From Actinomycetes bacterium (GTDB lineage Bacteria; Actinomycetota; Acidimicrobiia; Acidimicrobiales; JAAEMS01), in NCBI GenBank assembly GCA_024225275.1, contig JAAEMS010000279.1, forward strand, positions 31,662-95,661: DNA of 64,000 nucleotides, given 5' to 3'. This document shows, in pieces, positions 17,985 through 21,943 of this stretch (the stretch's first letter is position 1; each line of letters starts with the position of its first letter). The translations under genes were made by a program, and so were the position numbers. Under the pieces are notes generated by a model. That model saw only the letters and a list, made by a program, of their open reading frames with translations, was not told the DNA's origin and did no database searches.

Positions 17985-19286
17985 GTGAGGGAGTCCCAAG
18001 ATATCGCCGCGCTCCGGGAGCAACTGCGCGAAGGCCGAAGGAAGACAACCCCGAGGCGGCCGACCGAGCCCTCACCCGACCGGTACGCTCCTCATCACTA
18101 CCCTGCCCCGGAGGTGGTCATTCCCGTGTGGGCCCGGAGGCTCGGCCGCGTCGGCCGCGTCATGATCGCGTCAGGCGTCTTGATTCTTCTCTTCGTCGCC
18201 TACCAGTTGTACGGCACCGGCTTGGCCGAGGCGCGGGCCCAAGACGACCTGTCGTCGAGCTTCGAGGATCGCCAGGCCCTTCTCGCCGACGCGCTCGACC
18301 TCGACCCCAGCACCGTCGAGGCCAGCCCTTCCACCACCAACACCCCAACGGCCCCCACCGGCGCCACCACCACGACAGCCCCCCTACCCACACCGGACAC
18401 CACCCCAACGACCGCATCCGTTCTTCCCCTGCTCACCCCCGAGGCCGTCGACGCCCTGTACCCGGCCGACGGTGAGGTCCTCGGGCGCCTGTTCATCCCC
18501 GCCATCGGAGTCGACAAATTCTTCGTCGAGGGCACGTCGGTGGGTGACCTCAAGAAGGGTCCTGGCCACTACCGGTCCAGCCCCTTGCCCGGCCAGCCCG
18601 GCAATGCGTCGATCGCCGGCCACCGCACCACCTGGGGCCAACCCTTCCACGACGTCGACAAACTCCAGCCCGGCGACGACATCGTGGTCGAGACCCTCCA
18701 GGGCATCTTCACCTACCGGGTCATGGCCCAGGACGACGGTGAGGGAGGCGAGCTCGGCCACCACATCGTGACGCCCCGCCAGATCGAGGTTCTCAACGAC
18801 TTCGACGACAACCGACTGACCCTCACCGCCTGCCACCCGAAGTTCAGCGCTCGCCAGCGCATCATCGTGGTGGCCGAACTGGTGGGAGAACCGGCCCTGT
18901 CGGTACCCCGATCCGTCGCCGACGACGCCGACGACAAGCTCGGCGCCGACGAGGCCAACCAGGGCGACACCACCGACACCACCGACCTGGGAGCAGTGAC
19001 CAGCGACGACGCACCCGACGGCGACGGCACCTCCGAGGTGGCATCCAGCGAGTCGATCACCGCGGCTCCCAACCTGGACGAAGGCCTGGGCTGGGACCGC
19101 TCGGCCCTGCCCATCGCCATCATCTGGGGCCTGATCGCGGGCGCCATCTGGTTCGCCACCTGGTGGATTTCGCGACCCAGGGAAGGTTGGCGTCGGGCCG
19201 CTCCCTACGGCTTGGGCGGGCCGGTCTTCTTCATCGCTCTCTGGTTCTGTTTTGTTGGCCTCGACCAGTTCCTGCCGGCCTATTGA
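17985..19286 (+). CDS. Class E-like sortase with two extra C-terminal TM helices
   Basis: GPGHY, IAGHRTT, LTLTACHP, R in ARQRII; start position uncertain. Confidence 0.88.
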   Translation: MRESQDIAALREQLREGRRKTTPRRPTEPSPDRYAPHHYPAPEVVIPVWARRLGRVGRVMIASGVLILLFVAYQLYGTGLAEARAQDDLSSSFEDRQALLADALDLDPSTVEASPSTTNTPTAPTGATTTTAPLPTPDTTPTTASVLPLLTPEAVDALYPADGEVLGRLFIPAIGVDKFFVEGTSVGDLKKGPGHYRSSPLPGQPGNASIAGHRTTWGQPFHDVDKLQPGDDIVVETLQGIFTYRVMAQDDGEGGELGHHIVTPRQIEVLNDFDDNRLTLTACHPKFSARQRIIVVAELVGEPALSVPRSVADDADDKLGADEANQGDTTDTTDLGAVTSDDAPDGDGTSEVASSESITAAPNLDEGLGWDRSALPIAIIWGLIAGAIWFATWWISRPREGWRRAAPYGLGGPVFFIALWFCFVGLDQFLPAY

Positions 19287-19330
19287 CCCACCGGGTCGCC
19301 CTCGGCCAACTCGCCGCCCATACTGGGCAC

Positions 19331-19906
19331 GTGCCTCCCCTGGTCTCCATCGTCGTGCTGACCGCCCTTGTGCTGATGTCGTGCTCATCGGGGTCTGATG
19401 CACCGGTGACGGACGACTCCGACGGTGACGACGAGACGACCGGCGAGACCCTGCCGCCAGTGGAGGACCTGGTCGACAAGGGTCAGGCCCTGTCAGTTCG
19501 GAACCTTCAGCTCGGCCACTGCTGGGTGGGTTCGTCCTTCGACGACGCCGATGCCCTCACCAAGTTGGTGACCGTGACCGATTGTGGGCAGCCCCACCAG
19601 GCCGAGGTGTACTCGGTCGTGTGTCTCGGTACCTTCGACGATGACCTGATCATCGTGCCCTGCGGGCACGAGACCGTTCCCCTGGACTACCCCGGAGAGG
19701 CGATGCTCGACCATATGGCCAACGAGGCCTGCCTCGAGGGCTTCGAGCCGTTCGTCGGCGTCGAGTACTCCGTGTCCACGGTCGACTACGTGAGCTTCGT
19801 CCCCGGGGAGTCGGCTTGGGCGAGCGGCGACCGGACCATCGTGTGCAGCCTGATCGAGGATGATGCCTCAGCAATCCGTGACTCCCTCCTCGGAGCCAAA
19901 CGATGA
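19331..19906 (+). CDS. Septum formation family lipoprotein
   Basis: Lipobox-like VLMSC; LQLGHC, DCGQPHQAEVY, W.SGDRTIVC. Confidence 0.75.
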   Translation: MPPLVSIVVLTALVLMSCSSGSDAPVTDDSDGDDETTGETLPPVEDLVDKGQALSVRNLQLGHCWVGSSFDDADALTKLVTVTDCGQPHQAEVYSVVCLGTFDDDLIIVPCGHETVPLDYPGEAMLDHMANEACLEGFEPFVGVEYSVSTVDYVSFVPGESAWASGDRTIVCSLIEDDASAIRDSLLGAKR

Positions 19907-20070
19907 GCCGCACGGCGCGAAGCCCGAAGGCGAGCAGGGAACAATGAGCCGCACGGCGCGAAGCCCGAAGGCGAGCAGGGAACAATGAGCCGCACGGCGC
20001 GAAGCCCGAAGGCGAGCAGGGAACAATGAGCCGCACGGCGCGAAGCCCGAAGGCGAGCAGACCGCAATGA
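19903..20070 (+). repeat. 4 x 41-bp tandem repeat (MIRU-like); each unit is a 14-codon ORF
   Basis: Unit atgagccgcacggcgcgaagcccgaaggcgagcagggaaca starts at 19903, 19944, 19985 and 20026; the last unit ends gcagaccgca. Confidence 0.95.
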
Positions 20071-20693
20071 GCGGGAGTCTCAAGCGGCTGATTGCTGTGG
20101 TCATGTTCTCGCTCGTGCTGGGGCTGCTCATCACCTGGTGCAGTGGCGAGGAACACGACGACTCGGCTCCCGCCACCACGACCAGCACCACCACGACTAT
20201 CGCGCCCACCACTACAGCCGCCCCCGCCACCACCACGACCACCATGGCGACGACCAGCACGACCATGGCTCCCACCACGACCACCAGCAGCACCACCACA
20301 ACTATGCCCGCGCCACGGCTCCTCTCGGTCCTCCAGCTGACGGTCGGTGACTGTGTGGTCGACGAACTGTCCGCAGCCGAGGACATCGCCCAAGTCGGGG
20401 TGGTGTCCTGCAGCCAACCCCACCAGTCCGAGGTCTACGCGGTCCTCACCGACCCCGCACCCGATGCGGTCCCGTGGCCGGGTCCCGAAGCCCTGATCGA
20501 GGCCTCGGCGTCCGGCTGCCTGGCCGAGTTCGAGCCCTACGTCGGGCAGACCTTCGAAGAGTCGGCCCTGGATGTCTTGACGGTGTTGCCAACGGCCGAG
20601 ACCTGGCCCGAGGGTGACCGCGACACTCTGTGCATCGCCACCCGCCTCGACGGTCGCGACCTCGACGCCACGGTCCGGGACTCGGGCCTGTAG
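20067..20693 (+). CDS. Septum formation family protein with Thr-rich linker
   Basis: Signal/TM segment, poly-Thr, LTVGDC, SCSQPHQSEVY, WPEGDRDTLC. Confidence 0.8.
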   Translation: MSGSLKRLIAVVMFSLVLGLLITWCSGEEHDDSAPATTTSTTTTIAPTTTAAPATTTTTMATTSTTMAPTTTTSSTTTTMPAPRLLSVLQLTVGDCVVDELSAAEDIAQVGVVSCSQPHQSEVYAVLTDPAPDAVPWPGPEALIEASASGCLAEFEPYVGQTFEESALDVLTVLPTAETWPEGDRDTLCIATRLDGRDLDATVRDSGL

Positions 20694-20708
20694 GCGCTGA
20701 CTCCTCGG

Positions 20709-20921
20709 CTACTCGACGGTGGCGATCAGGTCGCCTTCGGAGACCTTGTCGTCGGGGGCCACATGTAGGGCAGTGACGATGCCGGCGATGGGGGCGGTGA
20801 CGGGGATCTCCATCTTCATCGACTCGAGGATCACCAGCTCGTGGTCGGCTTCGACCTCCTGTCCGACCTCGACCCGTACCTGCCACACATTGGCGGTGAT
20901 TTCCGCCTTGACGTCAGCCAC
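20709..20921 (-). CDS. Stand-alone biotin/lipoyl carrier protein (TB7.3-like)
   Basis: VADVKAEITANVWQV..LESMKMEIPV. Confidence 0.9.
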   Translation of the reverse strand: MADVKAEITANVWQVRVEVGQEVEADHELVILESMKMEIPVTAPIAGIVTALHVAPDDKVSEGDLIATVE

Positions 20922-20974
20922 CCTGTCCCCCTCGTTCGTCGATGAATGGCGAACCCTAGCGGGTGATGGGCGAC

Positions 20975-21943
20975 TCAGAGGGTGTCGAAGAAGGCCCCGA
21001 GTGCTTCGTTGGTGGCCTCGGGGGCTTCCTGCTGGACCCAATGACCCGCCCCGGGCACCACCGTTGTGCCCCGGAAGTCGTCACAGTGCTGGCCCGCCGC
21101 TTCGTAGGGGTCGAAGCCTTCGACGAACTGGCGCACGACATCGAGCTCGCCCCCGATGAAGGCGGCCGGCTGCTTGATGGTGTTGTCGGGCAACGAACCC
21201 AGTTCGTCGGCATCCAGGGGCTGGGCCCGGTACCGGTTGAGACCACCGCGCCAACCCACCCGATCGAAGGCATCCGCGTAGAGGGCCAGGTCCTCAGGAG
21301 TCGCCCAGGCCGGGAACGGATCGGGATCGGGCAGGCCATCGAGCAGCTTGGCCCCGTGTGGCTTGTCGCGGACGAAGTCAGCGCCGTGGGCATCACCGCT
21401 GGCCGAGAAGTAGATCTGGCGCACGCTCTTGAGCGAGTCGGCCCCGAGCTCGGCTTCGGCCACCCCCTCGTCCTGGAAGTACACCTGGTAGAAGAACTTG
21501 CCCTGGTCGGTGAACATGGTCTTCCAGAGCTCCAGGGCACTGACCGGGCCCACCGGCCTGTAAGGGACACTCAGTCCGGCCGCGGCGCGGACCACATCGG
21601 GATGGAAGCGGGCCGTGTTCCAGGCGATCGGTGCGCCCCAGTCGTGGCCGAGAACGATGGCCGGCTCGTCGCTCAGCGCGCCAATGACCGCGGCCACGTC
21701 GCTGGTGATGGCCGACAAGGTGTAGTCGGCGACCGGGTGGGGGCACGACGACCCGCCGTACCCGCGCACGTCAATGGCCGCCACGGTGTAGCCCCGAGCC
21801 GCGAAGTACGACATCTGGTGGCGCCACGAATACCAGAGCTCGGGCCACCCGTGAACGCACACGATCAGGGGGCCTTCACCCTCGATGACGACATTGATCT
21901 CGACGTCACCGTTGGTGATGATCTGGATCCGACGTTCTCCCAC
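20975..21943 (-). CDS. Epoxide hydrolase-like alpha/beta hydrolase
   Basis: HGWPE, GHDWGA, GHWVQQE. Confidence 0.9.
   Translation of the reverse strand: MGERRIQIITNGDVEINVVIEGEGPLIVCVHGWPELWYSWRHQMSYFAARGYTVAAIDVRGYGGSSCPHPVADYTLSAITSDVAAVIGALSDEPAIVLGHDWGAPIAWNTARFHPDVVRAAAGLSVPYRPVGPVSALELWKTMFTDQGKFFYQVYFQDEGVAEAELGADSLKSVRQIYFSASGDAHGADFVRDKPHGAKLLDGLPDPDPFPAWATPEDLALYADAFDRVGWRGGLNRYRAQPLDADELGSLPDNTIKQPAAFIGGELDVVRQFVEGFDPYEAAGQHCDDFRGTTVVPGAGHWVQQEAPEATNEALGAFFDTL

Follow-up and report, generated by a model that had tools for sequence, protein, structure and literature searches.

Dispersed 41-nucleotide repeats at stop/start overlaps of Acidimicrobiales genes are probably kept harmless by a relay mini-ORF

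Two genes within the window, i.e., the 64,000-nucleotide stretch of DNA analyzed here, are joined by an array of four head-to-tail units with a period of 41 nt (Table 1). The Septum_form domain is found in the open reading frames on both sides of the array, which identifies them as real, paralogous, and co-oriented genes. The upstream gene's stop codon (TGA, 19904-19906) is at the same time the TGA of unit 1, and the ATG of the downstream gene at 20067 is overlapped by the TGA of the last unit. The upstream Septum_form protein is probably a lipoprotein. The open frame ending at its TGA comprises 387 codons; a sortase-domain gene (PF04203, window 17985-19286) is located directly upstream of both Septum_form genes, and because its 3' end overlaps this first Septum_form open frame, the true start of the latter is uncertain. 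The downstream lipoprotein features a Thr-rich low-complexity linker, encoded by an (ACC)n-like sequence of period 3 at window positions 20173-20299. Neither promoter-like sites nor plus-strand terminator-like sites were found inside or adjoining the array; the "terminator-like" matches on the minus strand at this position are stems of 5 bp located on the non-coding strand. Among public sequencing runs, none of RNA was listed as containing this stretch.

Table 1. Positions of the four-unit array, its mini-ORFs, and the flanking genes in the window
Feature	Position	Strand	Evidence
Upstream gene, Septum_form-domain protein	19163..19906	+	Pfam PF13845, E 1.2e-8
Four-unit 41-nt array	19903..20066	+	Sequence read, Tandem Repeats Finder, family alignment
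Unit starts, head-to-tail	19903, 19944, 19985, 20026	+	Sequence read
Relay mini-ORF 1 (putative), 14 codons + TGA	19903..19947	+	ATG over upstream stop, TGA over next ATG (chain walk)
Relay mini-ORF 2 (putative)	19944..19988	+	Chain walk
Relay mini-ORF 3 (putative)	19985..20029	+	Chain walk
Relay mini-ORF 4 (putative), tail variant GCAGACCGCA, without Shine-Dalgarno-like AGGGA	20026..20070	+	TGA over downstream ATG
AGGGA, Shine-Dalgarno-like, in tails of units 1-3	19936-19940, 19977-19981, 20018-20022	+	Sequence read
Downstream gene, Septum_form, lipoprotein-like, signal peptide, Thr-rich linker	20067..20693	+	PF13845, E 3.7e-12

Tandem Repeats Finder placed the repeat at 19899-20060 (period 41, 4.0 copies, 99% matches, score 317). 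Units 1 to 3 are identical in sequence, and unit 4, the mini-ORF of which encodes the peptide MSRTARSPKASRPQ*, deviates in the last 8 nt only. As 41 equals 42 minus 1, the TGA of each unit in the array overlaps the following ATG as ATGA; walking this chain of starts and stops yielded four -4 (ATGA) overlaps, after which the 208-amino-acid downstream ORF begins. A preliminary description of this DNA had reported four 41-bp units, ATGA overlaps from unit to unit and with both flanking genes, and an AGGGA motif in units 1 to 3. The sequence read and Tandem Repeats Finder bore out the units (four according to the original assembly), the chain walk the overlaps, and the motif was confirmed at 19936, 19977, and 20018 and is missing from the last unit. 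That the last unit before a real gene has no Shine-Dalgarno-like motif fits a dependence of this gene on translational coupling. The small hairpins which the same description had placed in the units did not hold up: predicted DNA and RNA folds of the units, of a unit pair, and of the whole array were no better than those of dinucleotide shuffles (z -0.07 to +1.07).

The genome to which the window belongs (G000; 4.8 Mb, 437 contigs, 66.5% GC, completeness 99.0%, contamination 5.6%) was searched for further copies using BLAST and iterated nhmmer. The nhmmer search recovered 48 units in 27 clusters on 21 contigs, which correspond to 25 loci after joining two loci that are split over contig ends. 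These are the end of C153 with the start of C257 (rpsI to glmM, 40-nt units) and the end of C270 with the start of C91 (pyrC to carA); the two contigs of each pair have flanks or variant cores in common and are probably parts of single loci. Because arrays of the repeat end contigs, the assembly of G000 is fragmented, and array lengths are underestimated; as assembled, the arrays at different loci comprise one to five units. Specifically, a unit consists of a conserved 31-nt core, (A)TGAGCCGCACGGCGCGAAGCCCGAAGGCGA, and a variable, purine-rich tail of approximately 10 nt, usually followed by ATG. A 29-nt core with up to three mismatches gave 40 matches in G000 versus none for the reversed control.

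The copies share a characteristic placement. In 17 of the 27 G000 clusters the TGA of the core closes a same-strand open frame of at least 100 codons. Twenty G000 loci were examined for their neighbors, and at all of them Pfam-supported flanking genes lie on the strand of the element, with 30 of the 34 same-strand flanking ORFs having a Pfam match; no copy oriented opposite to its flanking genes was seen among the G000 loci. The flanks are operon pairs, namely response regulator and histidine kinase, FabH and FabG, ribosomal proteins L24 and L5, EF-P and NusB (five units), dihydroorotase PyrC and CarA, RNase PH and RdgB, SbcD and SbcC, RimI and TsaD, xanthine-dehydrogenase subunits, and S9 and GlmM. 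At 17 G000 loci an ORF of at least 100 codons begins no more than 30 nt past the last core, and in 15 of them its start is overlapped by the stop of the last mini-ORF. At 12 of the 25 G000 loci the chain runs without interruption between a long frame upstream and a long ORF downstream: nine of these loci have relay ORFs, two an in-frame fusion of the core with the downstream gene, and one is complete if two contig ends are joined. Six further loci are coupled to the downstream gene only, and seven have no chain (units beginning with CTGA, operon ends, and degenerate copies).

Outside G000, a degenerate core pattern scanned against 185,579 species genomes detected 14 loci in eight MAG records, each of which carries the label Acidimicrobiales or Actinomycetota, and a metagenome scan with the core pattern added three loci. 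Several of the pattern-scan loci represent the same junction, that between nuoC and nuoD. The core was found, at up to three mismatches, in none of 40 and subsequently none of 400 sampled other genomes of the order to which G000 belongs, and the core pattern was not found in the viral contigs, plasmids, or phages searched. Copy numbers in the carriers differ: a MAG labelled "Ca. Microthrix" has nine copies, and in five of the nuoC-nuoD genomes the element is single-copy, a sequence-only model giving one match of 46 to 49 bits in each and the next at no more than 16.9 bits. One of these single-copy genomes (G072) is a closed genome of 4.48 Mb. The chain is complete at 12 of the 17 loci in other genomes; among the remaining loci, one is fused, one has a single long relay ORF spanning a contig break, one is truncated at a contig start, and one is unclear.

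Start-to-start spacings of 14, 35, 38, 41, 44, and 77 nt occur, all of which equal 2 modulo 3. A 42-nt variant is present in the JBCCYT01 MAG (L022/L023), in which the internal ATG and TGA are lost and the frame of the mini-ORF is kept through at least four units; the resulting relay ORF fills the gap between two ABC permease genes and terminates at the ATGA of the second, downstream one. These spacings and the in-frame 42-nt variant suggest that indels in the tail are tolerated only when translation stays continuous. At C257:15072 and C75:3390 in G000 and at locus L025, the core continues in frame into the 5' end of the downstream gene; these fusions concern TsaD and the Mo subunit of a xanthine-dehydrogenase-like enzyme and would yield an N-terminal extension beginning with MSRTERSPKA. 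Taken together, the 2-modulo-3 lengths, the 42-nt variant, and the fusions point, at the level of the nucleotide sequence, to selection for unbroken translation. Two further G000 copies, C257:16097 and C145:1767, have the same tail, which leads into a GTGTGGCC...GGCCACAC hairpin past the tsaD stop; they may represent an operon-end variant of the element.

Filled and empty versions of the same junction were compared at nuoC-nuoD. Regardless of whether the element was present, NuoD was taken from 60 of the 61 genomes of another family, and 59 nuoC-nuoD junctions were fetched, of which 6 are filled, 45 show an NTGA overlap, and 8 are of other types; note that four of the six filled genomes had first been found by means of the core pattern. 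In the nearest empty sites (G097, G054, and G088), which read ...ATCCGATGACC..., the proteins end as in the filled ones, and a filled junction is equal to the empty ATGA-overlap sequence lengthened by 41 nt, ATGA standing at the left edge and (A/G)TGA at the right. In the nuoD tree, the six filled genomes fall into one clade of eight (support 92/95), two members of which are empty, and monophyly of the filled set was rejected on this single-gene tree (AU p 0.006). Consequently, either precise loss or repeated gain is required, and the simplest history, as judged from the nuoD tree as a single gene, consists of a single gain and of precise loss once or twice. The nuoC-nuoD junction of G000 itself is empty and has a 12-nt spacer. 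At rplX-rplE, which is filled in G000, 21 of 24 relatives belonging to the same taxonomic order as G000 show a -4 or -1 overlap, and in a genome of the same order a plain GTGA overlap occurs between tandem Septum_form paralogues. The preliminary description had proposed that the unit represents an independent family, that it inserts at ATGA junctions, that it keeps coupling at any copy number, and that it may tune downstream expression. The 48 units at 25 loci in G000 and the copies in eight other MAGs established the first of these proposals; the second is in accordance with the filled and empty nuoC-nuoD junctions and the overlaps in the 21 of 24 rplX-rplE relatives; and the third agrees, at sequence level, with arrays of one to five units, length variants, the in-frame 42-nt variant, and fusions that all keep the chain.

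Several other readings of the array and of the family were weighed against this picture. We attach next to no probability to the view that the array is a plain local VNTR of one intergenic spacer, involving neither a family nor insertion. Slippage between ATGAGC microhomologies could indeed generate the identical units 1 to 3, but the same core is present at 24 other, unrelated G000 junctions and in eight other MAGs, which rules out local tandem duplication as the only process. A different matter is the number of units, four being the count in the original assembly alone: that this count is an assembly artefact, the true locus having more or fewer units or being heterogeneous in the population, is a real possibility, if clearly not the probable one. 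Three identical 41-nt units (123 nt) are difficult for short reads, further arrays of the family sit at contig ends in this assembly (C153/C257 and C270/C91), and k-mer contigs from three runs, which were the sole public data located for the array, all break inside it, one stopping at 19932 and the next beginning at 20031 with none bridging; on the other hand, the array was bridged by the assembler inside a 99-kb contig, and unit 4, being different, provides an anchor on one side. With respect to the mode of movement, the fixed orientation with respect to a 4-nt target and the direct repeats of 4 nt are reminiscent of target-specific transposition, and two Y1_Tnp (PF01797) genes exist in G000. 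It is nevertheless very unlikely that the repeat is a palindromic element of the REP/RAYT or MITE type or an IS200/IS605-like single-strand element inserting 3' of a TGA target, since the family alignment contains the NTGA direct repeat and no inverted termini, no hairpin exceeds chance, the element is kept in single-copy genomes, and no element was found by nhmmer near either Y1_Tnp gene of G000 (best E 0.32). One of these two genes is located on C342, a 616-bp contig of low GC content coding for a Y1 transposase-like protein, which, in a genome of 66% GC, has the look of foreign DNA and may be a contaminant. With no mobilizing enzyme found and neither inverted repeats nor hairpins, mobility of the element rests on the filled and empty sites only.

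The core itself might have a function beyond that of a relay. In the six filled nuoC-nuoD genomes, only 4 of the 27 non-NTGA core columns vary, compared with 145 of the 202 four-fold degenerate sites in nuoD (Fisher p 1.5e-8), and variation of the tail (8 of 10 columns) is neutral-like (p 0.73). Conservation of the core in the single-copy genomes is similar to that in the multi-copy genome, and because the nuoC-nuoD element is single-copy, gene conversion from other copies is unlikely. The variable core columns across all copies are second codon positions (14 and 23), third positions being fixed, which argues for a constraint on nucleotides rather than on a peptide. A core conserved far above the neutral level even where it is single-copy may therefore do more than fill space; a neutral "stealth spacer" does not predict such a constraint as judged from these alignments, in which four of the six genomes were ascertained via the core. 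One explanation is that the core serves the host as a cis-acting signal and is recognized by a sequence-specific factor, e.g., the ribosome, an RNA-binding protein, an RNase, or a DNA-binding regulator. The core would then set the relative output of the neighboring cistrons, with the relay accounting for only a portion of what it does, and the dispersed copies would owe their presence to co-option or selection and not be selfish. The contrast between core, tail, and four-fold sites, retention of the core in single-copy genomes, and the invariant third positions all speak for such a signal. We nonetheless regard it as doubtful, because neither a factor nor a structure emerged from the searches performed: the fold z scores are near zero, an Rfam scan of 19000-21000 at E values up to 1 returned two sub-threshold chance matches only, both outside the array, and the duplex of the core with the 16S fragment of G000 (C174; model positions ~9-1097 assembled, the 3' end with the anti-Shine-Dalgarno missing) scored -37.2 versus -37.8 +/- 3.1 for 300 mononucleotide shuffles, i.e., without special complementarity. 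The element is missing from two genomes of the same clade, plain overlaps make up 45 of the 59 junctions in the family, the tandem growth of arrays and their breaking of contigs resemble selfish or slippage dynamics, and four of the six filled genomes owe their discovery to the core. In the same tentative vein, the 27-nt core could be an exapted cis-element, a bacterial intercistronic "reinitiation enhancer" or stoichiometry setter that stayed near-invariant at nuoC-nuoD in single-copy genomes as nearby neutral sites changed, and that was copied to other operon junctions in some lineages; candidates for the trans factor reading it would be an RNA-binding protein, an RNase, or the ribosome after termination. 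That the mini-ORF codes for a functional basic micropeptide (MSRTARSPKA...), the dose of which is multiplied by the repeat, appears scarcely credible. Almost every copy does have an open ORF, and the peptide does not vary at positions 1-4, 6-7, and 9-10; yet variation at second positions causes radical changes (A/V/E/G and P/Q/L), synonymous third positions are equally conserved, some units have no start (CTGA, CCGA), and the peptide tails differ locus by locus. Selection on the peptide was rejected on this codon-position pattern of core variation.

In our opinion, the observations are best described by a dispersed Acidimicrobiales element that inserts at NTGA overlaps and is kept harmless by its relay mini-ORF, a reading we consider likely, with translation of the mini-ORF, selection for coupling, and the mode of movement being deduced from the comparisons above, which themselves established membership in a family, the rules of strand and placement, the relation of filled to empty sites, and the persistence of the chain through length variants. 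The element is 41 nt long and is composed of a 31-nt core beginning with TGA and a purine-rich tail of about 10 nt ending before an NTG start. According to this relay model, it would enter the stop/start overlaps (NTGA) of co-transcribed genes and leave NTGA on both sides. An untranslated gap of 41 nt would break termination-reinitiation coupling, which the element would avoid by being a short ORF: the ribosome finishing the upstream gene would restart on the mini-ORF, end 14 codons further on, and restart on the next unit or gene. Tandem growth driven by slippage would add links to the chain, which would stay intact. The spacing dependence assumed here has been characterized in reporter systems; as described in the accessible parts of PMC10666635, coupling depends on overlaps of -4 or -1, 15 nt from the end of the upstream ORF are enough, and additional spacing of +38 nt in E. 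coli or of ~20 nt in Haloferax abolished or almost abolished reinitiation. Given these published limits, a bare 41-nt insert would be expected to uncouple a gene pair, and a 14-codon ORF with -4 ends would not.

Among known systems, the closest relatives in design are the MIRUs of mycobacteria, to which the preliminary description had already compared the repeat. MIRUs reportedly go back to Supply et al. in 1997. Within the degenerate-pattern scan of the 185,579 genomes, the core matched only Acidimicrobiales MAGs, and MIRUs were compared by description only. These descriptions, as far as the accessible portions of the sources extend, are of repeats of 40 to 100 bp in 40 to 50 copies, with tetranucleotide direct repeats, filled and empty sites, and ORFs overlapping their neighbors (PMC3184786), which insert at start codons with -4 spacing and disturb expression little (PMC12548453). 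By agreeing with these features, the element sustains the analogy: within the limits of those portions, both have units in the range of 40-100 bp, some 40-50 copies per genome, intergenic sites within operons, tandem arrays, a small ORF overlapping the flanking genes (-4), tetranucleotide repeats, filled and empty sites, and no known transposase. Unlike MIRUs, the element occurs in Acidimicrobiia instead of Mycobacterium, its unit is at the short end of the size range (41 nt), it gives no inverted repeat or fold signal, and it has a single-copy, strongly conserved form at nuoC-nuoD. The proposed mechanism resembles termination-reinitiation at -4/-1 overlaps as presented in the available sections of PMC6728339 and PMC10666635 in that the element recreates a -4 overlap at both ends; those sections deal with native gene pairs, whereas here the repeat supplies the relay ORF. 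Similarly, in synthetic bicistronic designs and translational couplers (PMC12548453 ref. 78 and PMC11602170, in the parts available) a short leader ORF ends on the gene start, but these are engineered single cassettes with a strong Shine-Dalgarno sequence and not natural repeated elements between genes. With REP/BIME and MITE sequences the element has in common that it is small, dispersed, intergenic, and presumably co-transcribed; it shows none of their distinguishing properties, which are palindromic or inverted ends, occurrence in both orientations, and the lack of a relay ORF. A description of this repeat family was not found in the literature searched, where PMC12306157 merely lists Acidimicrobium in a table. 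We regard the repeat as a new sequence family of the MIRU kind, a kind which is already known, set apart from MIRUs by description.

The repeat explains contig breaks in Acidimicrobiales MAGs and provides candidate VNTR markers for uncultured Acidimicrobiales. With zero to five links, with or without a Shine-Dalgarno sequence, its loci represent natural test material for termination-reinitiation, and as the core of the single-copy nuoC-nuoD element is strongly constrained, a sequence-specific function is now open to test. The empty and filled sites, the 2-modulo-3 lengths, and the in-frame 42-nt variant constitute unusually clean comparative evidence for selection on unbroken translation. The MIRU design, in which a junction repeat would be rendered harmless by a ribosome relay, thus does not appear to be restricted to mycobacteria and seems to have arisen with an unrelated sequence in Acidimicrobiia.
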